Source: a virus | Lineage: Duplodnaviria > Caudoviricetes | Length of the DNA stretch: 28,220 nucleotides | IMG/VR virus record: IMGVR_UViG_3300025392_000641 | Location: 1 to 28,220 of that record | Strand: one strand, 5' to 3' | Shown here: positions 8,001 through 22,693 of the stretch, piece by piece | Layout of the letters: every line of letters starts with the position of its first letter | Numbering within the stretch: position 1 is the stretch's first letter | Made by a program: the position numbers and the translations under genes | Notes under the pieces: model-generated | What the model was told of the DNA's origin: nothing | What the model saw: only the letters and a program-made list of their open reading frames with translations | Database searches by the model: none

Positions 8001-8682
8001 GGGAATTGTAAAATGCCATGTTGTGAGACATAAGCATAAAGACGTTGCCGCTACTCCATGGATTAACCATGTTTCCAACAGTATCAATTACATTTTTGGT
8101 TGTATCAAATGCGTCAGCAAGACCAGAAAAATTTGTGTTCCAACCTTTAGGTCCATAAAGACCGAGAGTTGCTAATTCTGCTCCAGTCATACCAACTCGG
8201 TTATTAATGTCTTCAACAAATTTTCCTGTGTCTTTTGCAAATGAAAGAACACCTTTGCCAATTGATTCTGCGGCGTTAGGAAGACTATTAGGGTTGGTCC
8301 AAAAATTTGCTACATCTTTTGTAGCGTTTGCGGCATGGTCCCACATGCTTGCGGTGCTGTGCCACAATGAACTCCAAAAACCAGGGCCGTGAGATGCGTT
8401 AGGGTCGCTTTGCGCTTGATTAATAGCATGTTCTTTGATACCGCCATACATTGTTAGATATTGAACAGCGTTAGAAACTTGAGTTGAATCAAGACCGTTT
8501 TGATGAGCAAAACCACCAAGCAAAGAAGGGTCTTGTGTTAAATGAGGATTGTTTTCAACAATGTTTTTTAATGAAGCAGCAACTGGTTCTTTCATTGAGC
8601 CAAGTGCGGATTCACCTATAAAACGTTGGTCACGTGAATCTTGAAATCCACCTGATTCTGAATATATTGGATTTTCAGGCAT
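2071..8682 (-). CDS. Giant 2203-aa protein, probable internal virion/DNA-ejection protein
   Basis: Uninterrupted 6.6-kb ORF two genes after the portal; mostly helical with Gly/Ala-rich hydrophobic patches; no catalytic motif recognised. Confidence 0.65.
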   Translation of the reverse strand: MPENPIYSESGGFQDSRDQRFIGESALGSMKEPVAASLKNIVENNPHLTQDPSLLGGFAHQNGLDSTQVSNAVQYLTMYGGIKEHAINQAQSDPNASHGPGFWSSLWHSTASMWDHAANATKDVANFWTNPNSLPNAAESIGKGVLSFAKDTGKFVEDINNRVGMTGAELATLGLYGPKGWNTNFSGLADAFDTTKNVIDTVGNMVNPWSSGNVFMLMSHNMAFYNSLAKRYGWGYAIGYAAPALAAGFATDGAFSAADVGATAAEDAAMVQSAGEAFRAGRTLSEEDQAAVRAAASRQMARMKQDAAQEIAQGQRAGRVAQLSRSMRATAKTLEYATKPLGGVIRVAKAIGKPMTDVKLNTMYAITQATAQKNPALAAIWNDPNVRNGVAIDQYGHPMGTNGQMIASYFGIDKGNMFFSPVSGLTDFYTKWLGTDPLGAYGKVLGQSRSFGGFTGRLGAWFGGLGIRGADSIDIAASQYRRVRKAFEYMATHSANEIADTFRNTYIDDAKKGIKASDIISQLGEAKSVEEVMQIHRDIAESVAMTKSMVPTLSMYEITKAALKGKLSSFGTAGNLLGVDGKFLEQISSDAETLKDTGGIPMKPKTELNYADNNLATRSLNSFARWLETRFTRSQMYIDELTNKVENSVIRPGSVNAIPAIMDFLRASLLPENVVKGVGDLLLQTKNPHDYISVYRHAMYHAVMRRATAGLNHDELATFIGTSSDHIWNEVVKMTGLDGGGAVGLYAAGINGADISAVVHAESGIEAYAGIGMNHLGELRFPRTAELRGLAAKVRGVSLDFAKTESAKFSRTQDMTIKQLQTVVDFHNPRLAGLDNQLERIGKVSTGQLEAQGARDPFRFQDANQEEIIHAKDGWGEASSIRYDLEGAGDIFRELAQSGNKMYIDEKVRRLQNLLDKHFSQTLRYGDSIKPAIATQNEKVQKLRALWEAQPTTTEAQKIAVDLNLAILNNDMADAQDALNKIKNLEDEGTGWVKDSHTNAVEKNPSLENKAITGYNKAKNDIQQIVKEAHTNPDLIDSQRFTTAYDALRVEKANLQRSINALSEVIQISKARVGEEVYAQAVDEIMATYPNINVNTAPDVLSGLKGQITAYEDALRQMEVRMTSPARPIEEVRKNAQEYVKATKTKAEADKILKEQFNEQIEKWHAEKNPYTPTFQKGVDGLNRFLSKTFVPLALFSGGWALRVSASEATLNSLRFGGWASFDAKITQAIAKHEVYGAKLITAAGKSERTLIRDVVAGALLGIERNLIKGFDQARRDRMLEDFVGTIMRHDGHLPGGVHDVGETVFNDNTLKTALLKTTVGLNDKGESVLAQAVSNKSFESKNIGSVGYAKALRMNIASGSTDALLQPTFGRLADIMFARGEEKTGELLASHMTWRDIHNAGAKGFVGDQTGRWEAAIGAGAKDFRKPEQVLALRDELRKGALQDIKNMDPAERARFARDTGRMKTGPLSGANAHEDWANAIVEHVMASVSGLDSRGNTIFHSTLVDQAATGNIKDEMAFAADVKKMSRGAEPKHIPAPGGVAHDALGSASATDFLKNISQKGHDKILGPIVNRLVREPIFLLEHHNAMEALRGMVDGNIIDEATAQVVADQRAMTNMIKYVHNPKDKTMFEVNMRVAAPFYFAQNQAWRRAFRVLHENPGAFEKYLKLSLGVTNYISNLSAGGAYPSIAIPGATFMGVAGVMGANIPAMGGDASPFTSLGFGLAADPGSVASVFPTGAQSGFAGLLGLARPSWGPLVTIPVKLVEKLYGTDTNSLAKKMSSAFLGPIAQSSSMQSDFFPSTIGRNLLDSATSIASAFGATDLMSTAQISAQNSIMNNAVDNLFKQQYNKVFNNTDFTGVNSWTGKPWTKDEIVTYCRGNAELEITKLFNDHTYYQDFLDRAKAAAVTMMLVKSVIAFGTPVAVSLNNQFSKTKEFSAIQNSINPDTKNKYTFAEAATKFGELYPYNVLDLTAHSMSTYATYPETSSAVKILTNHPEITKAYPNAAAYLIDRNSTYDAGAYTLEMSLGLRSRQAPQDYLNSLLVSAGNDYYYNYLATQPEFGGNGDVAGQSTTSTQWNALKTAAQAYGNSTNPTWLASFNGGQKHDIEIKAYNEMTKMLADPNVSKQLLPKTEKDKFQNILGQYNQVIGQVKGLIAAGDKTDASAVESAWYNWVTDEATNNPYWAKQSYFMTSVLRGLPTKGL

Positions 8683-9098
8683 TAAAGACCTAGAGATTTA
8701 GCAGACGAAGCAAGCATTGTGGCAAGTGAAGACGCTCCACTGCTACTTGCCGCAGCAGAAAGAATTTGTCCTAAATTTGCGTAAGATGGTCCCATTGCTT
8801 CTGGTCCCGCTCCAGGACCAAATGGCAGTCCTGTAGTTACAGGTTCATTAGGTCGTTGCGTTGGCTCTAAATGCGGGAACGAACCTGGTTGTGGCATGGG
8901 AGCCGCAGATGCTTGAGGTTGAGCAGAAGCGGAAGGTGATGAAGCCATTGGAACGGCACGTTGTGCCGCTTGCTGTACAGCAGCCTTGCCGTAGTCTTGT
9001 CCTGGAACTGTACTAATAGGCATGTTTAAATCTGTACGGTTACCGTACGCTGTACCTGGTGTTCCTTGGCGCTCTCCGCCTTTACCTTTACGTGGCAT
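8682..9098 (-). CDS. Pro/Ala-rich hypothetical protein following the portal, 138 aa
   Basis: Starts 3 nt after the portal stop, TAATG overlap with the next gene; motif PTQRPNEPVTTGLPFGPG. Confidence 0.75.
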   Translation of the reverse strand: MPRKGKGGERQGTPGTAYGNRTDLNMPISTVPGQDYGKAAVQQAAQRAVPMASSPSASAQPQASAAPMPQPGSFPHLEPTQRPNEPVTTGLPFGPGAGPEAMGPSYANLGQILSAAASSSGASSLATMLASSAKSLGL

Positions 9099-9101
9099 GT
9101 A

Positions 9102-11018
9102 TTAAACTCCTGCTGGTGCTGGTGCTGGTGCCTGAGCAACTGCTGGTGCCATTCCACCTGCGGCTTGCCCACCTGGAGCACCGCCACCGTGTAATGAAGC
9201 AAGAAGTTCTTGCATATTTGGTTGGCCTTGCGGGGCACCACCTTGAACTGGGTTATCTGGTGATACACCCATTCCAGGTTGAACTTCTGGTGCACCTGGT
9301 TGAGGGGCACCTTCCGGTCCTGCTTGTCCTTGCATTGCTTGAGCCTTGGCCGCTTGTTCTTCTTGCATTTCTTTGTGAATTTTGTCAACTGCATCTTCAA
9401 GCGTCATGTGACGTTGTGCTTTCATTTTAGCAATACGAGCAATAATAGAAGGGTCTAGTTGACCTTGAGATGCCTGTTGTTCAAGTCCGGTAAGAAGTGC
9501 TTTACGCAATCCTTCAATTTCTACACGGTCTGCTTCCAACGCTGGGTCTTCAATTGCAGGGTCCATGGTGCGTGCTGTCTCGTTAGACATGATGCCCATA
9601 CCTACACGCTGACCAATTGAAACAACCATAGCGTTAATGTCTGAACCAGGCATAGGATATTTAACATACGAAACTGTAGTGTCAAATGTTTCATTAGGTG
9701 TGTAATCTTCGTTAACAACCTTGCCATCTCCACCCATGAAGAACATAGAAGGTTTAGAACCGTAGTATGACTTCATAATTTGAACAGCACGTATGTTTTC
9801 CAACTCCATAGAGTTAGAAAAGATTTCCTGGTATTCCTGGAGTGGCATGTCAACTGCGCTGGACAGGACTGATGCGCCACGTCGGGCGGTACGAATGTTA
9901 GAACCTGACTCGCCTCCAAATTCGGCAGGAATACCAGCCGTAAGGCGCTGTGCTCGCTCAAGGCGGTCCAGTGCCATCGGTGCATCTTGGGTTTGCTGTG
10001 GATGAACAATTTGAATTTGTCCTTTATCCAAAATACCTCGAATGCCTTGTTTTCCATCAGCCTCTACAATTACACGAGGACTGGTAGGAGCGTTAGCAGG
10101 AGATACAACCCATTCGTCTGGGAACACGTTGCGGAATACTGCAATTGTGTTAAGTGCGTCTAACTTGGCTTCACGCTGGTACATACCAAGCATTTGGTCA
10201 AACTGACCCTGAAGACGGTCAAGTGTAATACGTCCAGCAATAACAACTGGGCAAATGTCAGAACGGTTAGGAATACGTTCAAGAATTATGTGCGACGCAA
10301 CACCTTTGCCGGTTTCGGTACTGAACGCTTGAGCCTTTGGTTTTTCAGCACCAATAGCAATAAGTACTGTTTCCCCTTCGTCTAAGTATTCAAGAATTTC
10401 AAACATGTCAGTGTCGGATTTATCACCACGGTACAAAATAGATGTTTGTTTTGGGTAATTTTCCTTCATCCAACCAAGAGGTCGACGGTCTGCAAAAATG
10501 CAATCGGTTGGTTCCATGTTGTCTGGGTCAATCATTGGTGCAGGGAATGTCTGCAATGGGTTACGTACACGCCAATGTGGAATTTTACGTTTGTCGTTAG
10601 GGTCAAGCGATACTGGAGAAAGTGATACGGCAGACATACCGTATGCAGTTAAATGACGACTACGACGGCGAACTTTAGTTCCCATCTTGTTCATGTCCCA
10701 CCAACCAAGGTTGGCTAGGCGACGGTCACGAGCACGATTGTCGGCAACCTGAATACCAGGGCGAAGTGAAGGGTATTGAACGTCTGGAAGAACCGACGCA
10801 ACTCGCATAGCAAAAGCATCAATACCTTGTGCAATCAAATTGGGAATAGCAGGTTTTTCTGATTCGTCTAATTCTGGTAGTGGAACAATTACGTCACCGT
10901 TGTAGTGGTCACGTACTTCTTGCATACGTCGAAACATCCCACTGCGGGACATACGGCGCTCCTGATACATAGTGACAATCTGGCCAGCGGCCTTGTCGTT
11001 GTCAGGGGATAGTGCCAT
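9102..11018 (-). CDS. Portal (head-tail connector) protein, 638 aa
   Basis: Directly follows the terminase; portal-like size and composition; low-complexity Q/P/A/G C-terminal tail as in podovirus-type portals. Confidence 0.8.
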   Translation of the reverse strand: MALSPDNDKAAGQIVTMYQERRMSRSGMFRRMQEVRDHYNGDVIVPLPELDESEKPAIPNLIAQGIDAFAMRVASVLPDVQYPSLRPGIQVADNRARDRRLANLGWWDMNKMGTKVRRRSRHLTAYGMSAVSLSPVSLDPNDKRKIPHWRVRNPLQTFPAPMIDPDNMEPTDCIFADRRPLGWMKENYPKQTSILYRGDKSDTDMFEILEYLDEGETVLIAIGAEKPKAQAFSTETGKGVASHIILERIPNRSDICPVVIAGRITLDRLQGQFDQMLGMYQREAKLDALNTIAVFRNVFPDEWVVSPANAPTSPRVIVEADGKQGIRGILDKGQIQIVHPQQTQDAPMALDRLERAQRLTAGIPAEFGGESGSNIRTARRGASVLSSAVDMPLQEYQEIFSNSMELENIRAVQIMKSYYGSKPSMFFMGGDGKVVNEDYTPNETFDTTVSYVKYPMPGSDINAMVVSIGQRVGMGIMSNETARTMDPAIEDPALEADRVEIEGLRKALLTGLEQQASQGQLDPSIIARIAKMKAQRHMTLEDAVDKIHKEMQEEQAAKAQAMQGQAGPEGAPQPGAPEVQPGMGVSPDNPVQGGAPQGQPNMQELLASLHGGGAPGGQAAGGMAPAVAQAPAPAPAGV

Positions 11019-11021
11019 CTA

Positions 11022-12941
11022 TTACCTCAGATTTGATAGTTGGGTATTTTTGACCCATTTGGGTCGCCACGCTGTAACGGCTTTATTTTGCGGTGCGTAA
11101 AGGTTGGGTAGGTTCCATTCAAAAAACCATTCGGCCATAACGCAGTCATCGGTACGCCCGTGGGGGTACCTGGTCACTTCATCAATCAACCTCATGGAGC
11201 GAACTTTTCCTTCACCCTTACCCATCAATCTTACACGACCAAACTTCCAATGCTGTGAAATTGTCGTAACACCATAATTGGAGTCTGATTTGTTGCTATT
11301 TGTGTTATGGGGAATTACCTCAACACTTCGAAGTTGCCGCCATCTTTTAAAATGGTCGTATTGAAGTAGGAACCTTTGAGCGGCATTTTGTTCCACAATC
11401 CAAACTTGAATTGGAATGCCAAGGCTTTCGCTTAGACGTTGCCAATCTTCCATAACCCCAGTAAATTCACCGGTATTGTAGTTGTAATCCAGAAACTCAG
11501 GGGCTTCCATTTTTTGACGAATAAGGTCCATTAAAAATCGTTGGTTAGATTCTGGGTGATAAACCCAACATTGAACAGACCAATACATTGTAGGAGAAGG
11601 GTCGGCCGTAGCCACAACAATGCAATCACGAGTGTTTAAACCAGGTGGCAATTCCCAACGGTCACGGTCTTTGTCAATGCAGCCTGGGCTAGTGCCATGT
11701 CCATATACCCACTCGTTTTGGACCAATACTTCATCCAGCGCCAAATCTTCTTGTTGATAAACAACTGCAAAGCGTTCCCCTCGGTTGGACATAAGGTTAG
11801 AAATTTCTCGCCAAGGGAGACGGCGAGGGTCCAGCAAACAACCGACGGGGTAAGCATTGCCCCCCCGTTTGTGATTCTCCGGAGAACACTTATCTTCGTA
11901 GTGGGCACGGTAGAGTAGGTGTTTGTACTTCTTGTCTTTGCGAAGTAGGGCAAGTTCTTCTTCGGTAAGTTCATCTTGTTTGTCCTCTTCTTCCTCATCA
12001 AGAGGTTGTACCATGTCTAAAGCAAATCGATAAAGGTCATCAGGAGCCAAACGCTGACCAATAAGAGCAAGCATACCTGCAGGTTCAAGTCGAGTTTCTG
12101 CAACGTCTTGGTACCAGTCTTCCATTGCTTCTCGTTGTTCTGCAGAGCGCACCTTGCGAGGGTCCACAAGGTCGTCCCAGAAACAGCCATCGAAGCGTCC
12201 TCCGATGAAACCACTATCCATACCGTAGGCACTAAGTGTTGGCTCCTTTTCTGAAATAGAACCCTGGTCTTCTGGTTGCATAACAATAAACGCTTGATTG
12301 GTCCATTGTTCTTTTTCCAAAGGTTTAAATCTACCAAAGTCTAAAGCAAGTGTTGATTCGGCATCAAGTGCTTGTCCACGTGATTTTAACATGTCATCGG
12401 CAGTTTCAGGTATAACACGTTCTAGTGAACGCTTAACTCGACGTAAGTTGTTTTGTGCAAGGCTCATAGTCGCACTACCAGTCAAAAGACGAATACCACG
12501 GTTACGGCAAATAGCCCAACACGTAATGTCATGCAACAGCGTTGTCTTACCCGAACCAGGTGGCATGTTCATAACCACGTATTCTTTGTCAGGCGATTCT
12601 AGTAACGCAACAAGTGCTTTACCTGCTTCTTCTTGCCATGGGGTAGAGATGCGACCAAAATAACGCATACGAAAATAACCAAAATCTTCTAATGCAGTTT
12701 TTGCTTCTTCACATAAATTGTCGTAATCTTTAGGGCCGCTAAGTTTTGCTTCTTTTTTTAATTCACGGTAATTAGTCGCTGAAGAATCAATGCCTTCACT
12801 AACTCGTAAATTTTGTGCAGCCTTTTCAACTCTATAAGCAGTGGCTTCTGAAAATTTAGATTTACGAGCGCTTTCAGCAATGGAAAATCCCGCTGCTCGT
12901 GCTTCAAAATATTTTTTACGTTGTACTGGTGTTACAGCCAT
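11022..12941 (-). CDS. terL: Terminase large subunit with N-terminal HTH-like extension, 639 aa
   Basis: Walker A MPPGSGKTT, Walker B CFWDDLVD, nuclease acidic motifs ATADPS, IVEQN, TDDCVMA. Confidence 0.93.
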   Translation of the reverse strand: MAVTPVQRKKYFEARAAGFSIAESARKSKFSEATAYRVEKAAQNLRVSEGIDSSATNYRELKKEAKLSGPKDYDNLCEEAKTALEDFGYFRMRYFGRISTPWQEEAGKALVALLESPDKEYVVMNMPPGSGKTTLLHDITCWAICRNRGIRLLTGSATMSLAQNNLRRVKRSLERVIPETADDMLKSRGQALDAESTLALDFGRFKPLEKEQWTNQAFIVMQPEDQGSISEKEPTLSAYGMDSGFIGGRFDGCFWDDLVDPRKVRSAEQREAMEDWYQDVAETRLEPAGMLALIGQRLAPDDLYRFALDMVQPLDEEEEDKQDELTEEELALLRKDKKYKHLLYRAHYEDKCSPENHKRGGNAYPVGCLLDPRRLPWREISNLMSNRGERFAVVYQQEDLALDEVLVQNEWVYGHGTSPGCIDKDRDRWELPPGLNTRDCIVVATADPSPTMYWSVQCWVYHPESNQRFLMDLIRQKMEAPEFLDYNYNTGEFTGVMEDWQRLSESLGIPIQVWIVEQNAAQRFLLQYDHFKRWRQLRSVEVIPHNTNSNKSDSNYGVTTISQHWKFGRVRLMGKGEGKVRSMRLIDEVTRYPHGRTDDCVMAEWFFEWNLPNLYAPQNKAVTAWRPKWVKNTQLSNLR

Positions 12942-13190
12942 CTAGCGATACAATGCGTCGTGCAATAGTCCTCTAATACGATAACCATTGGCGTTTGTGT
13001 CTCCAAGAGTAAAGAATCCACCGAGGTCATCCTTGAGGTCCTTTACGGCTACCACAAGGATGTAATCCTCGATGATGGGCATAACCCATTCTTGTTCGTC
13101 TAACAATTCAGCGTTGATGCCGTTGAGGAACTTAGGAAGGTTGGCTTCCAACCATTCTTTTAAAGAAACCTCTAAAGCATCTCCGTGCAT
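12942..13190 (-). CDS. Hypothetical protein, 82 aa
   Basis: Abuts the terL start; TAATG overlap with the upstream gene. Confidence 0.75.
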   Translation of the reverse strand: MHGDALEVSLKEWLEANLPKFLNGINAELLDEQEWVMPIIEDYILVVAVKDLKDDLGGFFTLGDTNANGYRIRGLLHDALYR

Positions 13191-13462
13191 TAAGCAGGTG
13201 TTGCTGGTGTTACAGGTGCAGTATCGGTTTTAACGTTAGTTGCTACCTGCGTTGCTAGGTGAGTTGCTAAAGCAATGTTGCTTTGTAATGTTGATTTCTT
13301 TACAAAGTGCAAAGCCTCTGTAAGAGTTGAAGCCAACAAACATAGTGATGCAATAAGACCCTCTACTCCGACAGGAATCTTAAAGCCTGGATGTACTACG
13401 GACAACACGGCGCCTGCTCCAGTAAGGATGGCGGTGATGTGGGGTGCAATGTATTTATTCAT
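13190..13462 (-). CDS. Small membrane protein (holin-like topology), 90 aa, probably leaderless
   Basis: Two hydrophobic segments; TGcTATGCT lies 6 nt before the ATG. Confidence 0.7.
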   Translation of the reverse strand: MNKYIAPHITAILTGAGAVLSVVHPGFKIPVGVEGLIASLCLLASTLTEALHFVKKSTLQSNIALATHLATQVATNVKTDTAPVTPATPA

Positions 13463-13468
13463 ACTAAA

Positions 13469-13477
13469 AGCATAGCA
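13469..13477 (-). promoter_or_regulatory. Extended -10 promoter for a leaderless transcript (TGcTATGCT-N6-ATG)
   Basis: 6-nt spacing to the ATG at 13462; no SD. Confidence 0.7.
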
Positions 13478-13478
13478 T

Positions 13479-13548
13479 GAGAAATCCCCCCAGTTATGTA
13501 CTAGGGGGATTCTCGGAAGGAGGGTTGAAATCAGTGGGGTTGAGCCAC
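13479..13548 (-). ncRNA. Candidate small RNA B (~70 nt) with anti-SD segment
   Basis: Own promoter (13555-13586), 5' hairpin GUGG/CCAC, single-stranded AACCCUCCUUCC, long 3' hairpin 13479-13514. Confidence 0.45.
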
Positions 13549-13554
13549 ATAAAT

Positions 13555-13586
13555 ACTATAGCACAAATATTTGGCGGAGGTGTCAA
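13555..13586 (-). promoter_or_regulatory. Promoter TGcTATAGT with TTGACA 20 bp upstream
   Basis: Extended -10 at 13555-13563; TTGACA at 13581-13586 (spacer longer than canonical). Confidence 0.6.
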
Positions 13587-13626
13587 AAAAATTTTTAAAA
13601 TTGAGCACCAAGGTGCAAAGCCTGCA

Positions 13627-13770
13627 CTACGACTGGGACTGGACCCATTCTTCGAAGGGCTGGCCGTTAACAGTTAGTTTGATACCACGGCGTCGGCGAG
13701 TAACCCTGCGTCTGTACTTGGGATTAAAAAGCCAAGTAGAGAGGTCTGTACTATCCCGCCGGATTTTCAT
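13627..13770 (-). CDS. Small Arg-rich protein, 47 aa (MKIRRDSTDLSTWLFNPKYRRRVTRRRRGIKLTVNGQPFEEWVQSQS)
   Basis: Hand-translated; TAATG overlap with the upstream 44-aa ORF. Confidence 0.65.
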   Translation of the reverse strand: MKIRRDSTDLSTWLFNPKYRRRVTRRRRGIKLTVNGQPFEEWVQSQS

Positions 13771-13904
13771 TACTTTTTTTTACGGACCTTGGACTTAATG
13801 GCTTCGAACTTGACCTTGGGGTTGGCGTACTTACGATTAGCCGTTTGTATGTCTTTTGACTCGTGCTTGTTAAATGGCTGGCCGCAGCCGCAGGTAGAAC
13901 ACAT
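13770..13904 (-). CDS. Small basic protein with N-terminal CxxCGC, 44 aa (MCSTCGCGQPFNKHESKDIQTANRKYANPKVKFEAIKSKVRKKK)
   Basis: Hand-translated; leaderless promoter 6 nt upstream; coupled to the next ORF. Confidence 0.75.
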   Translation of the reverse strand: MCSTCGCGQPFNKHESKDIQTANRKYANPKVKFEAIKSKVRKKK

Positions 13905-13910
13905 GCTTCT

Positions 13911-13919
13911 ATGATAGCA
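13911..13919 (-). promoter_or_regulatory. Extended -10 promoter for a leaderless transcript (TGcTATCAT-N6-ATG)
   Basis: 6-nt spacing to the ATG at 13904. Confidence 0.7.
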
Positions 13920-13930
13920 CATATGGTATC

Positions 13931-14015
13931 AAAGTAAGAAGCCCGACCCCATATCCCTACGGTGCCGGACCTTTTACCTTTTAGTGTCGGAAGTTACTAA
14001 TGGGACAATGCCCAC
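13931..14015 (-). ncRNA. Candidate small RNA A (~85 nt)
   Basis: Near-consensus promoter upstream, 5' hairpin GUGGG/CCCAU, 3' ~14-bp hairpin with GGGA tetraloop followed by UUCUUACUUU; no ORF. Confidence 0.55.
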
Positions 14016-14020
14016 CTAGA

Positions 14021-14049
14021 ACTATACACACATGGTATACACCTGTCAA
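14021..14049 (-). promoter_or_regulatory. Sigma70/SigA promoter TTGACA-N17-TATAGT
   Basis: Perfect -35, 5/6 -10, 17-bp spacer. Confidence 0.85.
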
Positions 14050-14058
14050 GCACCTGGC

Positions 14059-14076
14059 TTGTGAAAACATTCACAT
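14059..14076. promoter_or_regulatory. Rex/CRP-family operator TTGTGAAAACATTCACAT
   Basis: Perfect TGTGA-N6-TCACA; one mismatch from the Rex consensus TTGTGAA-N4-TTCACAA; lies between divergent promoters. Confidence 0.65.
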
Positions 14077-14104
14077 ACAAGTTACGCCACAGAGGTTATT
14101 TAGG

Positions 14105-14113
14105 TGGTACTCT
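14105..14113 (+). promoter_or_regulatory. Extended -10 promoter TGgTACTCT for the large RNA candidate
   Basis: Same TGnTAnnnT motif; a 6-nt gap puts the start at 14120, the first base of the first helix. Confidence 0.5.
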
Positions 14114-14119
14114 TATAAC

Positions 14120-14520
14120 AGCGCCGATGAGAGCGTTCGTGGGTGGAAGTCCCCGCCGAGTGTTAGTCCCCGTCGTGAGATGGCAGATACTAGCGGTAGT
14201 TAACCGGTTAGAGCGGTATTCGGTCGAACACGCATATACAGCAATATCGTGTATGAATTGTCCAAGTACTTTAAACGCATCGGACTCGCCTCGTGTTCAT
14301 GACGGGATGGATTGTCCCAAGTAAGATACTTAAGTCTTTTTTACTTGGTTGGTGATGCGGGGCGAACCAGATAAAACGGTACGTAAGTGTCCTTTTAAAG
14401 GTAACTAGATACTACTCCCAAAAGATAGTGATTTTGAAAGGGGGCTGATAGGGTTTAGTTCCGGTAGTTTTCTTCTTGTCCAGAATGCTTCGCATTCCAG
14501 ACGTTCGCCTTTTTTGTTTT
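14120..14520 (+). ncRNA. Large structured non-coding RNA candidate (~400 nt), family not recognised
   Basis: About a dozen nested helices with G-U pairs valid on the + strand, GNRA tetraloops (GUGA, GUAA), T-loop-like GGGUGGAAGUCCC, 3' U-tract. Confidence 0.65.
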
Positions 14521-14837
14521 AAAATAACGAGAATGACAGTTTGGCTAGTCCGAGATAACTAACTTTTTACTAGCACCGCCCTCGGCACATACCCGGTCAG
14601 AGACCGGGCACAGTCCTTGCCTCGTGCGTTGTTATGGTCACTAGTGCAATGAAACCACACAACCCTCCGTGACCCACGACACATGAGCATGACAACTGAC
14701 ACTCTGCTCATTGCTACTGCTTTCACGCTCTTTCAACAACTATCAGCCTAAATCATAGGGGAATGAGTGAGAATAGTGAGTAAGGGAGAGAGAGGGATTG
14801 GCTTAGCCCTTACTTTGACAGTAACAAACCACTTGCA

Positions 14838-15042
14838 AACTGCAACTACAACTGCATTAAATGCCACTTCGTGCCTCTGTGCCCCATGTCATTCCGGCTG
14901 CCTAATCGGCTGCTCGGAACAACGGGCACTAACTACAACTACATAAAACGCATGGCAAAGCCATCAAACTGTTGATTCTCCTGGCTATCTTCTACTCAAT
15001 ACAGCAAGAGTGCACACCCCAACGTACTTAGGCCTTAACTAC
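14838..15042 (+). repeat. Dispersed AACTRC hexamer arrays
   Basis: 3 copies at 14838-14855, 2 at 14931-14942, 1 at 15037-15042. Confidence 0.6.
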
Positions 15043-15097
15043 GCAATAAAGGGGGAAGGGCGCCGTTTTTCCTGGGTTTTGCTCCCGCAGGCGTTGA

Positions 15098-15137
15098 CTC
15101 GTTGGGCTTCAGAGCCCGCTCGTTAGGCTTCTGAGCC
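15098..15137. repeat. 19-bp direct repeat x2 (CTCGTTRGGCTTCWGAGCC), 21-bp period
   Basis: 15098-15116 and 15119-15137; each copy contains a GGCT..AGCC palindrome. Confidence 0.7.
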
Positions 15138-15152
15138 AAGCAAACTGGGAGA

Positions 15153-15181
15153 GCGGACGGGGAGCATAGCCCCCCGCCCAC
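15153..15181 (-). terminator. GC-rich hairpin terminator of the amidoligase operon
   Basis: 13-bp stem GUGGGCGGGGGGC/GCUCCCCGUCCGC 3 nt after the stop codon; weak U-tract. Confidence 0.65.
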
Positions 15182-15184
15182 GTC

Positions 15185-15370
15185 CTACAAATCGCCATCT
15201 AGCCTACTTACAAGCCAAACAATCGACACGGTAACAATCACCCAAACAATGCACGCCCAAGGGTCACTCCTCGAGTCCCCGTACCAACTGCCGGAAACGT
15301 GAGCATGAAACCACAGCGCACACGCCCAGCCGGTCAGCAGAGCGCCTACAAAGACAATCCACGCCCTCAT
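15185..15370 (-). CDS. Small two-TM membrane protein, 61 aa
   Basis: ATGA overlap with the GATase, SD GGAGGTG, two hydrophobic helices. Confidence 0.75.
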   Translation of the reverse strand: MRAWIVFVGALLTGWACALWFHAHVSGSWYGDSRSDPWACIVWVIVTVSIVWLVSRLDGDL

Positions 15371-16161
15371 CGCTCACCTCCTACCGTCAGGCACATGCAT
15401 TCATCGTAAGCGCTCACACAGTCCAAACACCACCCGCAGAACTCACAGTTACTCTCACCATCAGCAACACGAGCGCCACAGTCAGGGTTATCACAAAGCC
15501 ACCAGCGAGCCTCAAATGAATCTTTCGGAGCTGAGTGCCTAAACATGTCGTAATCATACCCCCAAGCCGAACTGCTGGACATGTAGGACTGATTAGCGGG
15601 CTTATAGGACGAATTAGACCACCAAACTTCAGACGCCGACCAGTGACCAAGACCCTCACCAAGAATCATCAAAGGCATCTCGTCCTCGACGGTAAGAATG
15701 ACCACCTTCGACCCAGAACCCTCCACAAAGCCCTCGAGCACGTCCCAAGCGTGAGGCTTAGACAACCCTGCGACGCCACCAAACAACCCGCCAAAAACCT
15801 CACGTGCAAACGTCTCGGAATCCGTCTGGTCACCCGTCGCCTCCAGTGGGAGCATGCCATTATGAGCGATAACAGTGCCACCCGTGCCAACTGGGAAGCC
15901 GTGACAGTTCTCAAGTTTCTTCGAGCCATGTGTGGCGATTCTGGCGTGGAAAAACCAAGCCAACACTTCACCACTCACCAACGTCTCAAAAGCCGAAATT
16001 GCCGTTCCAGCATCCATTGAACGACCAGTGAGCAGACGCCTAATTCCATCCATCTCAACCACTGCACCCCAACCGAACCCATCTGGATTCGACTTACAAG
16101 CCTGCTCAAGTTCTGCTCGTGTCGGACGAGCTGAGTCAACCCCAGCGCAAATGACGCACAT
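15367..16161 (-). CDS. Class II (Ntn) glutamine amidotransferase with C-terminal Cys-rich zinc ribbon
   Basis: Cys2 nucleophile (MCVI), NPDGFG, FHARIATHG, HNG and TDSE motifs. Confidence 0.92.
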   Translation of the reverse strand: MCVICAGVDSARPTRAELEQACKSNPDGFGWGAVVEMDGIRRLLTGRSMDAGTAISAFETLVSGEVLAWFFHARIATHGSKKLENCHGFPVGTGGTVIAHNGMLPLEATGDQTDSETFAREVFGGLFGGVAGLSKPHAWDVLEGFVEGSGSKVVILTVEDEMPLMILGEGLGHWSASEVWWSNSSYKPANQSYMSSSSAWGYDYDMFRHSAPKDSFEARWWLCDNPDCGARVADGESNCEFCGWCLDCVSAYDECMCLTVGGER

Positions 16162-17141
16162 CAGCCCGCCACCAATCCAAAAGCACCACCACGAAGCAAA
16201 ACCGAAGCCTCATTGTGATCGTGTGAATCAACCCAAGCGCTAAAACGTGACCACTCCAAAGCACCACGCAAAACATCGTGAGCCGTCAGCGTCCTCGTGT
16301 ACTCACGGGCAAAGTGAACCAGCGCAATAGAACCAAGCACACGCCCAAACTGAAGCGAAGGTCTAAAAATCCTGACCTCAATAGTCTCAGCATTGCTGAA
16401 ATTCACAGCGTCAAAGTGATTAGCCGAGTAACGAACCTTTACCTTTGTCACAGTTTCGCCCTCGTTGAAATTGGCAAACGATGAAGAACGACGAGCAACA
16501 CCCTGCCAATCCTTAACGTTTCGATTAAACAACAAACCAAAACGCACCTGATGACTGGCAGTCATACCCTTGCGTGTCATGTGAACATGAAGCCCACATT
16601 GCGACATCGTCCACGCTTGCATCTGACGCTCAGCAATCTCAGCAAGCCAAGCGCCCCACTGCTCTTTCGATTCATTCCAAGAATCAAAAGTGCGGGGATG
16701 ACTAACCAACTCAAAACCCTCACTCGACAGACTGCCGTCCTCTTTCATAATCGCAACATCGCTAGGAATGTTTTCAGCAACAAAACCAACAGCCAAAGAC
16801 CTCGAACCATTCGTGTCCATTTCCAACTCGATGCCGTAACCAACAGAACCAACGCCGTGCATGCGCCAGCCCTCCTCCGGCTGATAATCATGAGCCTTCA
16901 CAGGACGTTCATCCTGAGCTGAGTCATAACAAGCCTGACAATACTTCTCAAAACCGTCACCGTCGTAAAACTCCACAGACTCAGAAAAAATAATCTCGCA
17001 ACCTTCACACTCCCAAGAAGAATAATCAACGCAACCTTCGCACCATTCAACTTCGCCATAACGAGTTTGGACAGTAACCTCAGCGCCCGGGTCGCTGTGC
17101 TCACCGCACTCATCACACACAAAACATTCCACAACTGGCAT
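16161..17141 (-). CDS. Putative amidoligase (COOH-NH2 ligase, glutamine synthetase fold) with N-terminal Cys-rich repeats, 326 aa
   Basis: GIELE, KEDGSL, GFELVSHP, CGLHVH and TIEVRIFR motifs; start revised to ATG 17141 after GGAGG. Confidence 0.9.
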   Translation of the reverse strand: MPVVECFVCDECGEHSDPGAEVTVQTRYGEVEWCEGCVDYSSWECEGCEIIFSESVEFYDGDGFEKYCQACYDSAQDERPVKAHDYQPEEGWRMHGVGSVGYGIELEMDTNGSRSLAVGFVAENIPSDVAIMKEDGSLSSEGFELVSHPRTFDSWNESKEQWGAWLAEIAERQMQAWTMSQCGLHVHMTRKGMTASHQVRFGLLFNRNVKDWQGVARRSSSFANFNEGETVTKVKVRYSANHFDAVNFSNAETIEVRIFRPSLQFGRVLGSIALVHFAREYTRTLTAHDVLRGALEWSRFSAWVDSHDHNEASVLLRGGAFGLVAG

Positions 17142-17192
17142 CTCAAAACCTCCACAATCACGGGAACACCCCAACGGTGAACCACTTCAATG

Positions 17193-17222
17193 ATTCTAAG
17201 CGCAAAACTTCACCCGTGTCAA
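17193..17222 (-). promoter_or_regulatory. Sigma70/SigA promoter TTGACA-N18-TAGAAT
   Basis: Near consensus, ~50 nt upstream of the amidoligase start. Confidence 0.8.
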
Positions 17223-17431
17223 TAGTATTCCGCTAATTTCTTAAAAATAATACAAATGCCACCAAACACGCTAAAAAGCGATTCTAAAGACTTAGCGCCA
17301 AAGTGGACCAACCACCCACAAACAACAAAAAAGTCCGCTAGCGAGCAAACACCAAAAAACACCCATTTTTACCCCCAAAGTGGGGAACCTGCCCTAAATG
17401 AGTAAAAATCACAAAATTGCATAAAAAACCA

Positions 17432-17458
17432 TTAGCACTCACACGCCGCAACTGCCAA
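17432..17458. promoter_or_regulatory. CIRCE-like HrcA operator TTAGCACTC-N9-AACTGCCAA
   Basis: Left arm perfect, exact 9-bp spacer, right arm 6/9 vs GAGTGCTAA. Confidence 0.6.
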
Positions 17459-17462
17459 CATA

Positions 17463-17477
17463 CGAACAAATGTTCGA
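17463..17477. promoter_or_regulatory. LexA (SOS) box CGAAC-AAAT-GTTCGA
   Basis: Perfect Gram-positive/actinobacterial CGAAC-N4-GTTCG palindrome. Confidence 0.75.
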
Positions 17478-17483
17478 TTTTCA

Positions 17484-17511
17484 AAAAAAAATTTTCCGGG
17501 CTAGCGCCCGG
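17484..17511 (-). terminator. Hairpin CCGGGC-GCTA-GCCCGG followed by A4 and a T run
   Basis: Perfect 6-bp GC stem with downstream U-tract on the minus strand. Confidence 0.45.
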
Positions 17512-17541
17512 CTACGCATCTCAGACAGTACCAAGCCCTCA

Positions 17542-17571
17542 AACTACAACTACAACTACAACTACAACTAC
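17542..17571 (+). repeat. Perfect tandem repeat (AACTAC)5
   Basis: Direct reading. Confidence 0.95.
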
Positions 17572-17679
17572 GGGTCCCTAATCGGGACACCATTTCCGGT
17601 TCCGCTGGACGCTTCAATCCACGCCACAGCAAACTCGACCCCCGCTACTCGTGATCTACAAAACTATATGTGTGCAAAA

Positions 17680-17760
17680 ATCATAGCGCAAGCCGGATTA
17701 TCTGTCAACCGCACGAAAATGTGTAGAGGCACACGGATTATCTGTCAACCGCATGAAAAT
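17680..17760 (-). promoter_or_regulatory. Duplicated promoter: 27-bp direct repeat x2 (40-bp period), each carrying TTGACA
   Basis: CGGATTATCTGTCAACCGCAYGAAAAT at 17694-17720 and 17734-17760; first copy gives TTGACA-N17-TATGAT, second TTGACA-N17-TACACA. Confidence 0.75.
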
Positions 17761-17845
17761 TAAAAGGGGAGTGCCCCTGCAAAAGCCTAGAGAACTTTCA
17801 CAGGGGCACAGGGGTAGGCATGGGGCGTTGGGTACCCATGCCTAC
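17761..17845 (-). terminator. Tandem hairpin terminators ending the recombination/regulator operon
   Basis: GTAGGCATGGG/CCCATGCCTAC (17814-17845) and GTGCCCCTG/CAGGGGCAC (17771-17809) followed by a T-rich run. Confidence 0.75.
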
Positions 17846-17848
17846 GAA

Positions 17849-18061
17849 CTATAGAACGCCGTCCGTAATGGCCCAAAAGCCGTTGCTGACGCTGTATTCA
17901 ACAGTACTAGCAGGGTCAATGCTACCTGCTAAACGGTCAGTACAAAATTCTACAAAACTTTCAACTGTCAATGGGTAATCAAGTCGTGACTCAGAATACT
18001 CATTAAACAAGTCAAGGTCGATAGTGTCGTACGTTGCTGTAATGGTAACAGTGCACTTCAT
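17849..18061 (-). CDS. Hypothetical protein, 70 aa
   Basis: ATGA overlap with the upstream gene; terminator follows. Confidence 0.75.
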   Translation of the reverse strand: MKCTVTITATYDTIDLDLFNEYSESRLDYPLTVESFVEFCTDRLAGSIDPASTVEYSVSNGFWAITDGVL

Positions 18062-18306
18062 GCTAACGGTCCAATAAATCGAACGTATGTAAGTCGGTTG
18101 CCATTTTCGCCTTTGCGGTAGGCACGTTCGTAACGTGGACCTGCAAACATGCGTGGCACCGGTATGTGGTTTGGGTTTTCAATAATCATAGCCCATTCAC
18201 CTGGTCGCTCTTTAAGCATTGCATCAACCCGAGCCCACTTGCTTGTGCGCTTGACTTGGCCTTGACTGCTTGGTAGGGGTGTTTCCCATTTAATTTGCTC
18301 ATTCAT
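18058..18306 (-). CDS. Hypothetical protein, 82 aa
   Basis: Strong SD AGGAGG; promoter-like element upstream. Confidence 0.8.
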   Translation of the reverse strand: MNEQIKWETPLPSSQGQVKRTSKWARVDAMLKERPGEWAMIIENPNHIPVPRMFAGPRYERAYRKGENGNRLTYVRFIGPLA

Positions 18307-18363
18307 TTTACCCTCCTACAGGTAGTTATTTACTGCGTTATGTACATTTAAGCATACAACTTT

Positions 18364-18378
18364 AGACTTGTCAAGTCT
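18364..18378. promoter_or_regulatory. 15-bp palindrome AGACTTG-T-CAAGTCT containing a minus-strand TTGACA
   Basis: Operator-like, overlapping a -35 upstream of the 82-aa gene. Confidence 0.5.
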
Positions 18379-18764
18379 TATTTTATTTCTTTTCTTTTCC
18401 TATAACGAGCCACACGAATGCGAGTAGCAGAATTATAGGCATCAATGCATGGCTGGCATGTAACATGAGATTCGTCCTTTGTCTTTTGGCGTCGATGCCA
18501 TGCCCACCCTCGCTCGGTCCCGTGTTCGACTTCTTTGCGGTTAGGTGGTTGGTATCCAAGTGATACCGAAAGAATGCGTAGTTCGTGGTAATCGAGTCCT
18601 GCCCAGATTCCCCACGCCTCACGATGCACGAGAGCCCATTTAAGACAGTTTGCCTTAATGGGACACTCGGCGCAAATCATTTTTGCATGCATCTGTGAGC
18701 GATTGCGGTCGTCAAAAAAAAGTTTGGTTTTACCCACACACTTTGCTTTTGACCAATCAACCAT
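18378..18764 (-). CDS. whiB: WhiB family transcription factor with extra C-terminal His/Cys motif
   Basis: W..AKC, C..CP...C, GIWAG; C-terminal HGT..GW..H...CQPC. Confidence 0.92.
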   Translation of the reverse strand: MVDWSKAKCVGKTKLFFDDRNRSQMHAKMICAECPIKANCLKWALVHREAWGIWAGLDYHELRILSVSLGYQPPNRKEVEHGTERGWAWHRRQKTKDESHVTCQPCIDAYNSATRIRVARYRKRKEIK

Positions 18765-19135
18765 TAAAAGTCGTCTTCAACGGCCTTCTTTTTAGCACCC
18801 TCGAAAGGATTACCTGTAACCTGCGCTGTTGCGAATCGAAGGTCTGGTCCAACAGCCTCAGCATTAAGAATTACCTTGCTTACAGTCTTACCTTCCTTGT
18901 TCTCGTAACGGTCTTGGTTCAAGTTACCGTTGACTACAACTCGGTCACCCTTATGTAGTGAATCAGCAATGCCCTGAGCAAGTGTGCCCCAAGCGGTGCA
19001 GTCGAAGTAAGAAACGTATTCTTCCTCGCCCTTCTTTCTGTTTACTGCAACAGAGAAGTTCACAAGGGCCATGCCGTTGTTGGTGAACTTTAACTCTGGG
19101 TCGGCGGTAAGTCTGCCTATAATGGTGGTACTCAT
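18764..19135 (-). CDS. ssb: Single-stranded DNA-binding protein
   Basis: IIGRLTADPELKFT, KGDRVVVNG, acidic tail EDDF. Confidence 0.95.
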   Translation of the reverse strand: MSTTIIGRLTADPELKFTNNGMALVNFSVAVNRKKGEEEYVSYFDCTAWGTLAQGIADSLHKGDRVVVNGNLNQDRYENKEGKTVSKVILNAEAVGPDLRFATAQVTGNPFEGAKKKAVEDDF

Positions 19136-19178
19136 TTCTGTCCTATGCTTTCTCTAATTACTGCTCTGTAAGTGTACA

Positions 19179-19520
19179 TCAATAACCGGCCATTTGCAAC
19201 AGTTTCACCATGTCTTCTAGTGTAACTACTGCATAGGCTCGACTTGCACTTGTGTTACGTCGCTTGATAACTGCTAGGCCGATGTCTGCCTTAGCGTTGT
19301 TCTTCTCTACCTCGGTTTCATCCATGATAGAAGCGAGTGTTATCTTGCCTACGTTCTTGCACTCAATCACAATGGCATGGGCAAACCCGTTAAGGTCACC
19401 CTTGTCAATCGTGTTTCCTGCACCGTAACGTCGTTCGACTTGCGGGTAGCCATTTTCGTTAAAGAACTTAGCAACGTCACGCTCCCACTGACTGCCCTTA
19501 GCCTTCTGTGGTGTCGTCAT
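19179..19520 (-). CDS. Holliday junction resolvase-like PD-(D/E)XK nuclease
   Basis: KAKGSQWERDV, DKGDL, IECKN. Confidence 0.85.
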   Translation of the reverse strand: MTTPQKAKGSQWERDVAKFFNENGYPQVERRYGAGNTIDKGDLNGFAHAIVIECKNVGKITLASIMDETEVEKNNAKADIGLAVIKRRNTSASRAYAVVTLEDMVKLLQMAGY

Positions 19521-19626
19521 ACATACCCATTTTTTCCTGTATTTTTGTAAGTTCTTTCAAAAGTTCTTCCTTTGTCATTGATTTACTAATTTCATCAAAG
19601 ACGTTATCTTTCTGTGGTGTCGTCAT
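19498..19626 (-). CDS. Small protein, 42 aa (MTTPQKDNVFDEISKSMTKEELLKELTKIQEKMGMYDDTTEG)
   Basis: Hand-translated; begins with the same 17 bp as the resolvase. Confidence 0.6.
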   Translation of the reverse strand: MTTPQKDNVFDEISKSMTKEELLKELTKIQEKMGMYDDTTEG

Positions 19627-19771
19627 CGTCCCTCTGTCTAGCCATAATGTTTTTCATTGCTGTTGTAATAATTTCTTGGTCAACGCCAAGCGTAATAAGT
19701 TCAGTAAGAAATGGAATCATTACAGAGTCCACCGCTTCATTAATTGACTGAATTAACTCCTGCTTTTCCAT
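19604..19771 (-). CDS. Small protein, 55 aa (MEKQELIQSINEAVDSVMIPFLTELITLGVDQEIITTAMKNIMARQRDDDDTTER)
   Basis: Hand-translated; SD GAAAGGA; fills the operon gap. Confidence 0.7.
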   Translation of the reverse strand: MEKQELIQSINEAVDSVMIPFLTELITLGVDQEIITTAMKNIMARQRDDDDTTER

Positions 19772-20010
19772 GGTACAAGTCCTTTCTGACTGCGTTCCTT
19801 AACCATTTTACTTCTTTGCTTGGCACTAATTCCAGCACGGTATCCAATTTGCAAATAATCGTTTAATGCATCCTCAAGACATTGCTCCCTAACCGGACAA
19901 GGAACACAAACGTTTAAAATTTTTTCCTCTACGATGTACGACTTGCCCTTTTGCGGATGAAAAATGTTGACATCCATCCCACGACATTTTGCCTGCTCTC
20001 TCCAACTCAC
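19753..20010 (-). CDS. whiB: WhiB family transcription factor
   Basis: WREQAKCRG, CVPCPVREQCL, degenerate GYRAG turn. Confidence 0.88.
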   Translation of the reverse strand: MSWREQAKCRGMDVNIFHPQKGKSYIVEEKILNVCVPCPVREQCLEDALNDYLQIGYRAGISAKQRSKMVKERSQKGLVPWKSRS

Positions 20011-20531
20011 TTTGCAACCCTTTTCATTAAACCTTCTTTAAAACCTTTAGGCATTGGCACTGATTCTTTAACTCTTTCCTCAATAACACGCTCCCATTTG
20101 TCACTCTTGGGAGTTGTGATAACAATAGCAGGTTTGTTAACTTTGGCGTCTCGCTCACGTTGACCAACCATTGCGTCGTAGTGCTTACGAAACTTCTCTG
20201 GAGACAGTATGACCGTGCTCCAGAAATCGTGACCCATGCACCACTTAAGCAACTCAGAGGCATGCGCCTCGTTGCGCTTGTCAATGCGAATCATCTTCTC
20301 AAGCACTGCCACTGCTGTGTCGTTAACACGTGGTGGGTTCTTGCCATTGTTTTTAATGCACTGCACCATCTCTTTAAGTAATCTCTCACCAGCAACCCAC
20401 GTAGGTTTCCCCTTTACAGTCGGCGCCTTCACTGCCTTTACTTTTTCGATGGCTTCTGTCACTTCTTCTATTGAAACTAATTTGTCTTCAATTAAAGAGC
20501 AGAGAACCTTGCGGTAGTCAACGGTTGCCAT
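20007..20531 (-). CDS. Putative replication initiation protein (C-terminal-domain-like), 174 aa
   Basis: KMIRIDKR...W...DFWSTVILSPEKFRKHYD resembles phage replication protein O-type C-termini; start revised to 20531. Confidence 0.6.
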   Translation of the reverse strand: MATVDYRKVLCSLIEDKLVSIEEVTEAIEKVKAVKAPTVKGKPTWVAGERLLKEMVQCIKNNGKNPPRVNDTAVAVLEKMIRIDKRNEAHASELLKWCMGHDFWSTVILSPEKFRKHYDAMVGQRERDAKVNKPAIVITTPKSDKWERVIEERVKESVPMPKGFKEGLMKRVAK

Positions 20532-20808
20532 TAGTTTCCCTAAACAAACAAAGCGCAATAATGGTGTAAGTTGCCAGGTCAAGCAAGGAATCTTCAATCG
20601 ATTCGTTGACCATCTTTCCTCCTTGTGCGCCCTTCTGCAATCGTCTCATCTTGTCGTTCGCTCGTGCCATGCAACCAACCCAACCTGGGATACCAAAATC
20701 TTCACTCGCTCGTACGTTTGCAAACGGGTCGTTTGTCTTTCCATAGTCGGCTTGTTTCTTGTCATGCATAGCCTGAATCTCTTTAAGTATGTTTGTAAAT
20801 TCAGTCAT
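20518..20808 (-). CDS. Nucleotide modification-associated domain 1 (DUF1599-like) protein, 96 aa
   Basis: KKQADYG...DPFAN...DKMRRL...ESIEDSLLDLATYTII; start revised to the TAATG overlap. Confidence 0.8.
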   Translation of the reverse strand: MTEFTNILKEIQAMHDKKQADYGKTNDPFANVRASEDFGIPGWVGCMARANDKMRRLQKGAQGGKMVNESIEDSLLDLATYTIIALCLFRETNGNR

Positions 20809-21200
20809 TAACAACCGTCGGTCCATTCTGGGTATAACCCGTGGTTCCTTGTCCAATAAAAATACGCTACTGCGTTTTGTTCTATCTTATTTGCTTGGTT
20901 TGGTGTAGCAGGTAGGCTAGGCATGTAAGAACGTGCAAACTGCCAAATGCCAGGCATGAACTGATACATTCCCTGCGCTCCTGATACCACGTTGGTATCA
21001 ACCAACTTGTCACGACTCTCGGTGTGAGCAATACATTTAAATTGCAACTGCACACTTGGTGGCAATGCTGTTATGGGGTCGAATGAACGAATCCCATTAG
21101 CGACCATTGTCGTAGGTGCATCAACCGATGCAGTTGCTGACGGTTGTATAAAATTCATGGATAGGAGTAACCCACCCATTGCTAGTGTTGAACGTATCAT
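20808..21200 (-). CDS. Secreted lysozyme-like (Rpf-type) transglycosylase
   Basis: Signal peptide; CIAHTES (catalytic Glu), GMYQF...W, EQNAVA, terminal W...C. Confidence 0.8.
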   Translation of the reverse strand: MIRSTLAMGGLLLSMNFIQPSATASVDAPTTMVANGIRSFDPITALPPSVQLQFKCIAHTESRDKLVDTNVVSGAQGMYQFMPGIWQFARSYMPSLPATPNQANKIEQNAVAYFYWTRNHGLYPEWTDGC

Positions 21201-21488: not shown

Positions 21489-21495
21489 ACCCCTC

Positions 21496-22684: not shown

Positions 22685-22693
22685 GTTCTCTCC

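Follow-up and report, generated by a model that had tools for sequence, protein, structure and literature searches.

A conserved structured RNA gene upstream of the large terminase gene in a phage clade, representing an apparently undescribed RNA family

The locus and its promoter signals

The window, the whole 28,220-nucleotide stretch of DNA analyzed here, belongs to a phage record that is 68% complete. All of the genes recognized in it lie on the minus strand; they encode a portal protein, the large terminase (terL, 11022-12941), two WhiB-like regulators, SSB, RusA, an initiator-like protein, Erf and a Cas4-like nuclease. The whiB genes, a subthreshold transglycosylase-like domain and weak matches of the terminase (29 of the 37 are to Streptomyces phages) suggest that the host is an actinobacterium. 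A terL search of GTDB found no prophage, and no small-terminase gene was recognized in the window upstream of terL. A related TerL (P0120) is annotated with an XRE-family helix-turn-helix. The palindrome GCACCAAGGTGC, present also in L302 and L308, lies at 13605-13616, upstream of the packaging operon, and may be an operator, possibly one bound by the helix-turn-helix-like N-terminal part of TerL.

The RNA gene described here occupies a slot 1 to 4 kb upstream of terL (Table 1). Its 5' and 3' ends were set from promoter spacing and from the limit of conservation. The earlier note had drawn it as a unit of ~400 nt (14120..14520) without a credible open reading frame; the strings listed there are found where it placed them, and the interval holds only short plus-strand frames, but the conserved part covers 14120-14362 only. 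On the other side of the divergent promoters, the Cys-rich ORF is found in many, not all, RNA-bearing loci; it has no family match and gave only unnamed matches under 0.9 in the ESM Atlas. Other small ORFs adjoining the RNA have been gained and lost among relatives. tRNA genes are scarce in these phages, occurring in one of four complete genomes and one of 92 loci. The genome G004 carries a tRNA-His and tRNA-like fragments (C1 21080-21155, 27055-27130 and 28744-28799), two of which lie in the interval from the RNA to terL, and in L068 a tRNA-Met gene has the same position.

Of 64 distinct regions, 61 have a TAnnnT box 5 to 8 nt upstream of P1 (background, 7%), and in 33 of the 64 it is joined by TG (background, 0.6%). 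The TGnTAnnnT promoter noted earlier 6 nt upstream, here TG-n-TACTCT, is thus a conserved feature. The perfect palindrome TGTGA-N6-TCACA, presumably a CRP-family consensus, could serve either of the divergent promoters. Of 54 upstream regions, 17 have a palindrome with 9 or 10 matches out of 10 (background, 0.8%), placed 52 to 63 bp upstream in 16 and 100 bp upstream in the other. Together, the host-type promoter and the CRP-like site present in a third of the regions suggest that the RNA is likely transcribed by host RNA polymerase and early. The one RNA run with matching reads, which made up a small share of it, yielded a single 151-nt contig (depth, 2.2) at 14359-14509, with none on the RNA core, and this contig was the only 99%-identical piece over 5001-25000. 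It is no evidence of expression, since the run had been chosen by means of this stretch.

Table 1. Window coordinates of the RNA gene, its predicted helices and the neighboring elements
Feature	Position	Strand	Basis or remark
50-aa Cys-rich ORF (CxxCGCG)	13770-13922	-	Divergent from RNA gene
Divergent promoter-like site TTGACA-17-TATAGT	14021..14049	-	Precedes the Cys-rich ORF
Perfect TGTGA-N6-TCACA palindrome	14060..14075		Centered 52 bp upstream of RNA
Extended -10 box TG-n-TACTCT	14105..14113	+	6 nt ahead of first helix
Conserved structured RNA gene	14120..14362	+	About 245 nt; homolog conservation and covariation
P1, 5' hairpin, 14120-24/14133-37	14120..14137	+	5/5 pairs change on both sides; 94.5% paired
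P2, 3-bp stem 14141-43/14151-53, loop U-G-N-R-A-G-U	14141..14153	+	100% paired
P3, 14155-58/14194-97, AGUG bulge, 14163-67/14189-93, variable extension	14155..14197	+	Covariation
P4, 14198-200/14218-20, 2-nt bulge, 14203-06/14214-17	14198..14220	+	98.6% paired
P5, 14226-32/14292-98, closing P6, P7 and junction CCU 14289-91	14226..14298	+	58/58, 15 stem versions (tally script favored a C/U-U, i.e., pyrimidine, junction)
P6, variable	14233-55	+	Within P5 domain
P7	14260-85	+	Missing in L015 group and L157
P9, 3-bp stem 14301-03/14314-16, loop GG..GGAU	14301..14316	+	Read from sequences; 81.7% paired
P8, hairpin of variable length	14317..14348	+	Homolog comparison
3' tail UUGGUGAUGCGGGG	14349..14362	+	14354-59 pairs with 14276-81
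Variable spacer, outside RNA family	14363..14528		About 60-290 nt in relatives
73-bp fixed-spacing DNA element	14529..14601		Kept down to about 53% TerL identity

Conservation and covariation of the RNA

In 80 fetched loci with TerL proteins 70 to 100% identical to that of the window, the DNA upstream of terL diverges except in blocks, the strongest of which runs from ~14120 to ~14362. An iterated profile found the RNA in 60 of the 80, and L079 was added by motif; most of the remaining loci stop short of the slot. Where loci with TerL at least 70% identical span the slot through to the downstream 73-bp element, the RNA is present in 56 of 56, and it is kept although the DNA on either side diverges. 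Its total length in relatives is about 188 to 350 nt. Pattern scans supplied further variants; the set then comprised 61 distinct 5' and 58 distinct 3' halves, all from a single phage clade and many of them near-duplicates; the matches that lacked the RNA numbered 8 of 65, 3 of 6 and, for metagenome loci, about 51 to 53 of 118. Isolated phages gave only chance matches of 26 to 37 nt, and plasmids gave no match. Pattern matches in GTDB genomes were due to chance in 12 of 12 cases, and a model of the 5' half found nothing in 151 genomes sampled from one actinobacterial phylum (25 candidates scored in each, run without a positive control) or in three GTDB genomes.

The homologs near related terL genes show covariation. 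In an alignment of 40 5' halves picked for diversity, 96.7% of the 950 cells of P1 to P4 pair, both sides change in 15 of 24 pairs, and none of 500 shuffles scored as high; when partners were slid, 31 to 51% of cells paired. On a tree built from the very alignment tested, 39 same-branch compensatory events were counted, whereas 5,000 random pairings averaged 4.0 and never exceeded 18. G-U cells outnumber A-C cells by 140 to 7 in these 5' halves, which fixes the plus strand and favors RNA over DNA. Folding energy, one of the checks set beforehand, was dropped as evidence for a structured RNA, as it was no better than that of shuffles: single-sequence z was -0.71 for 14115-14525 on the plus strand and -1.62 on the minus strand, -0.70 for 14119-14363 and -1.46 for 14360-14520, and the minimum-energy fold of the window RNA departs from the covariation model. 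These values, about -0.7 for the RNA, and an expression record limited to one uninformative contig are what would be expected of a structured DNA or a neutral relic that gives rise to no functional RNA. The G-U excess, the GNRA loops, the conserved promoter spacing and the compensatory events nevertheless make such an origin highly improbable, and we conclude that 14120-14362 very probably encodes a real functional RNA. The proposal of a new structured noncoding phage RNA on the plus strand, with a promoter-like site of its own, is supported by covariation, by strand asymmetry and by the lack of an Rfam match (see below).

Compensatory change supports several helices that had been read from the window alone, namely 14120-24/14133-37, the stem 14141-43/14151-53 of GGG-UGGAAGU-CCC (14141-53), GAACACG 14226-32/CGUGUUC 14292-98 and 14260-63/14282-85. 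The middle pair of P2 is G-C in 22 sequences and C-G in 18, and its UGNRA loop matches what we take to be the T-loop consensus. P3 had been drawn as 14161-67/14189-95; the inner five pairs (14163-67/14189-93, 92.1% paired) are likewise supported by compensatory change, but the outermost pair fails in 30 of 40 sequences and is displaced by 14155-58/14194-97 (99.4% paired), a helix that had been missed. The CCGUC-GUGA-GAUGG hairpin of the window, which forms the P3 extension (14170-74/14179-83, GUGA tetraloop), is present, but its length and sequence vary among relatives; predicted P3 terminal loops are GNRA in 10 of 17. The proposed helix 14203-07/14220-24 is replaced: 74.5% of its cells pair and none of its pairs changes on both sides. 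The true register is formed by 14203-06/14214-17 together with 14198-200/14218-20. The P4 loop, GUYAGAG at 14207-13, is invariant but for its one U/C position, and the AGU strand ahead of this hairpin is missing in L077 and L079.

In the 3' half, an unedited MAFFT alignment of 29 sequences has 97% of P5 cells, 95% of P7 cells and 82% of P9 cells paired. P6 and P8, proposed as 14233-39/14249-55 and 14317-26/14339-48, are present but variable in length and sequence. P9, absent from the earlier list, occurs in the versions GAC/GUC, AAC/GUU, CGC/GCG, UGC/GCA, CUU/GAG and GCC/GGC; its loop motif is WGGD, UGG not being fixed. A pairing of UCGU 14137-40 with ACGG 14302-05 was rejected because these bases covary as P9.

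The tail, in which the RNA ends with a G run, carries GAUGCG (14354-59), and its proposed pairing with CGCAUC (14276-81) in the P7 region is upheld. At least five consecutive Watson-Crick pairs link the two in 23 of 39 nonredundant cases, a count that includes a few matches located elsewhere in the P7 region, against a mean of 4.9 and a maximum of 12 for shuffled P7 regions and 18% for noncognate tails. The versions include GCAUC/GAUGC, GCAUUU/AAAUGC, CCGACUU/AAGUCGG, CGUAC/GUACG and ACUUCA/UGAAGU. Because the register moves between subgroups, only 58 to 65% of these cells pair in a plain MAFFT alignment. P7 or its complement in the tail is missing in about 16 of the 39. The pairing would form a pseudoknot or else join two molecules. 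Long members (the L047 group, L077, L079 and L132) carry extra insertions or a domain that appear, as read from the sequences, to be pseudoknotted as well. The closing helix and 3' domain once placed beyond 14362 were not sustained: 21 of the 50 spacers could form a closing helix of at least eight pairs, where 17.2 would be expected, and the mean folding z is -0.35.

The predicted core comprises the 5' hairpin, the T-loop hairpin, the GUYAGAG loop, the three-way domain, the GG..GGAU loop and the tail pseudoknot. That unpaired bases are invariant while the peripheral stems around them vary freely suggests that these parts form a tertiary core.

The downstream DNA, RNA-free relatives and candidate functions

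The spacer beyond the RNA holds a sequence box (14424-37) found in 24 of 50 spacers, where 0.2 would be expected, and a minus-strand GCGAAGC hairpin (14478-502); GCGAAGC occurs in 9 of 50 spacers (expected, 2.0). An A/U-rich stretch (14363-14378), often UUGUAACYAA, stands at a fixed distance past the tail in 21 of 47 and is possibly a 3' processing site or a DNA box. The spacers of L012, L060, L119 and L179 fold strongly on the strand opposite the RNA (z of -4 to -6.4); those of L012 and L179 have no Rfam match. The 73-bp element that follows contains a promoter-like ATGACA-17-TAnnn and a conserved CCCTCGGCACA..CCGGTCA block, and it occurs also in lineages without the RNA. It probably serves as an origin or a packaging site, or else as a second plus-strand promoter. 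Between this element and whiB sits an amidoligase/amidotransferase cassette (window 14600-17800), the orientation of which flips among RNA-bearing relatives, even close ones (11 versus 11; e.g., L010, L026 and L066 versus L007, L035 and L075). We found no flanking inverted repeats that could explain the flip. AACTAC repeats lie close to both cassette ends in the window. The RNA had been called the only plus-strand unit; this is so in the window, but in relatives the downstream cassette is co-oriented with it in 11 of the 22 RNA-bearing contigs that showed both.

ColE1 RNA II is a folded pre-primer. Our RNA might likewise act in cis on an origin or a packaging site downstream of it, either as such a pre-primer or as an activator, resembling ColE1 RNA II or ARRPOF. 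It always points at the 73-bp element, a promoter facing that element persists in sister phages without the RNA, the spacer has its conserved box and GCGAAGC hairpins, and the G run at its 3' end and a size like that of ARRPOF would suit such a role. Nevertheless, the spacer varies from about 60 to 290 nt, six of the 12 sister-clade loci, as well as L376, L378 and L379, have the 73-bp element without the RNA, the replication-initiator-like gene is 5.6 kb away, and the GC-skew switch follows the invertible cassette rather than a fixed origin. We consider action in cis unlikely. Action in trans fits better, given the varying distance to an element that also exists without the RNA.

The sister clade (TerL about 57 to 60% identical) has another structured RNA in the same slot in 6 of 12 loci; the remaining 6 have the promoter and short hairpins only. 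This RNA of about 250 to 280 nt (L298:250-528 on the minus strand, L299, L301, L302, L307 and L308) changes on both sides in 24 of 73 predicted pairs among five sequences. It has in common with ours the slot, the promoter, a 5' hairpin and a CGGGUGGAU...UUGGUGA..CGGG end. Profiles of the two do not cross-match, and a 3'-domain profile found one of six (E 0.005), so that the two are at most putative homologs. L300 and L303, sister phages that lack the large RNA, have a short hairpin just past the same promoter, upstream of the 73-bp element; its loop, CAC(C)GAGGAA(A)CAC, is common to both.

Two near-complete or complete sister genomes, G159 (97%) and G160 (100%), have neither RNA, and G163 (86% complete) also lacks ours. 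Relative to RNA-bearing phages, G159 and G160 have TerL proteins 58 to 60%, portal proteins 58% and capsid proteins 57 to 59% identical. Among ORFs matching at least four genomes, with the ORFs of G001, G002 and G005 as queries, no protein gene was found in all seven RNA-bearing genomes and in none of the three RNA-free ones. As these sister genomes have a matching motor without the RNA and no protein gene co-occurs with it, an essential role in packaging appears unlikely, and the suggestion that the RNA is packaging related is weakened. A specific form of that suggestion is an analogue of prohead RNA, in which copies would form a ring through pairing of the tail with P7 and aid docking of the terminase on the portal. 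The slot near terL, the failure to recognize a small-terminase gene in the window, the retention of the RNA in 56 of 56 loci of the clade and the blindness of covariation to intra- versus intermolecular pairing would all accord with it. We nevertheless regard it as very unlikely in view of the RNA-free genomes with TerL, portal and capsid, the lack of P7 or of a tail complement to it in about 16 of 39, and the host-type promoter.

A ribozyme of a new class, one that cleaves itself or, in trans, tRNA or a different RNA, might also show what is seen here: junctions and loops with invariant unpaired bases, optional stems at the periphery, a pseudoknot, extra pseudoknotted insertions in long members and the want of a partner gene. 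However, models of known ribozymes give no match even at E 10, the RNA interrupts no gene, and tRNA genes are rare. We judge a ribozyme improbable, slightly more so than an RNA acting in cis.

Of the roles considered, action in trans on a host factor is the most likely: the gene stands alone behind a promoter of host type, it combines invariant unpaired bases with optional stems at the periphery, and it has neither a partner gene nor a constant distance from a DNA site. We hold this role to be somewhat short of an even chance. That the factor bound is tRNA related is doubtful when taken by itself. As a working model, which we put forward only tentatively, the RNA gene would be read early by host RNA polymerase from its own promoter-like box, and the transcript would adopt a compact core made of T-loop and pseudoknot and would bind a host factor in trans, most plausibly one handling tRNA, perhaps through a tRNA-like surface. 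Alternatively, the T-loop, the YAGA loop and the GG loop might together serve as a dock for the tRNA elbow and CCA end.

Few bacterial or phage RNAs longer than 200 nt combine a pseudoknot with many invariant unpaired bases, and several such classes proved to be ribozymes or formed unexpected assemblies. About 60 natural variants are at hand here, the smallest of them near 190 nt; some domains are optional, and there are close relatives with no RNA or a different RNA in the slot, so that structure and function could be tested in vitro without phage culture.

Comparison with known RNAs

Rfam models gave no match at E 10 over 13000-15500, only an unrelated tRNA over 11 sources and five chance matches over six loci. 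Models for GOLLD (RF02032), raiA (RF03072) and YrlB did not match, the first two at E 10, and raiA matched in none of five genomes. The Rfam comparison called for by the earlier note assigns the RNA to no family. A full-text literature search, in which few subscription papers were covered, found no description of it. A set of viral csRNAs comprises 8,495 IMG/VR motifs of 29 to 151 nt (Fremin 2023, PMC10690425); no fragment of our RNA was found in those of its tables that were searched, and one may be among the 8,495 motifs. We therefore regard these 190- to 350-nt pseudoknotted phage RNAs as an apparently undescribed family.

Resemblance to tRNA was weighed in several ways and is no more than a lead. 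The order of the stem-loops agrees with V, T, acceptor, D, but only 67% of cells pair in a T stem of 5 bp, and the tRNA D-stem register lacks covariation and is incompatible with the register that covaries. T-arm and D-arm profiles derived from 32 tRNAs of the host phylum do not place the RNA among the best matches in the window; with the T profile in G001, it comes second to fourth (E 2.8). The tRNA likeness failed these register and profile tests, and ARAGORN finds no tRNA or tmRNA at the RNA. YrlA is similar in layout: a hairpin, a T-loop stem, a closed variable stem, U-A and a GG-containing arm follow in that order, and YrlA is described as V-T-acceptor-D (PMC4201824; bioRxiv 10.1101/312249). 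It differs in that our RNA has a 3-bp T stem, UGNRA instead of UUCRA and a large extra 3' half. A Ro60 (TROVE) gene was found in none of five complete genomes (the control matched in 2 of 14), the Y RNA motif GNCGAAN0-1G is absent from the RNA 5' end, and GUCGAAC follows the D-like arm in some members only.

Models of RNase P have a P4 pseudoknot core. The UGNRA T-loop, the YAGA-containing loop and the GG loop recall, by eye, the elbow and CCA/T-loop receptor modules of RNase P, T-boxes and FMN or cobalamin riboswitches, and RNase P and T-boxes are described as holding tRNA by T-loop pairs and a GG loop (PMC4919913). Our RNA differs in having no model match, no downstream gene and no recognized specifier or P4 equivalent. 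Since no plus-strand gene follows in the window, it is not a leader riboswitch. Likenesses to the FMN riboswitch, group II domain V, group I R/S, RNase P and T-boxes were set aside as seen by eye only.

The prohead RNA of phi29 is likewise a small phage RNA near a likely genome end, and a covarying long-range pair in ours is possibly intermolecular; in contrast, this phage has a full-length large terminase, and complete relatives package without the RNA. ARRPOF, GEBRO and PAGEV, motifs of plasmid replication regions, are similar in size (223 to 349 nt), in pseudoknots and in their place beside a likely DNA site; ARRPOF is given as 255 nt (PMC12990946; see also PMC5737381). Ours differs from them in that it has neither an Rfam nor a plasmid match and that its DNA site exists without the RNA. 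The raiA motif, of about 210 nt (PMC11751092), shares its size, many conserved unpaired bases, short and long variants and a link to Actinobacteria, but raiA forms two core pseudoknots from one loop, whereas our RNA has a local 5' hairpin and a pseudoknot made by the 3' tail and is so far found only in phages.

GOLLD often lies near tRNA islands, and ROOL has six junctions and three pseudoknots. Like our RNA, both are free-standing, multibranched, pseudoknotted phage RNAs without a known protein partner, with a conserved core and a variable periphery. They are larger, GOLLD exceeding 800 nt (PMC12286853) and ROOL averaging 581 nt (PMC5737381), whereas the RNA described here spans about 188 to 350 nt, matches no model and, rather than lying in tRNA islands, keeps a fixed slot upstream of terL. 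Overall, it is akin in kind to the orphan ornate RNAs and a member of none of them.
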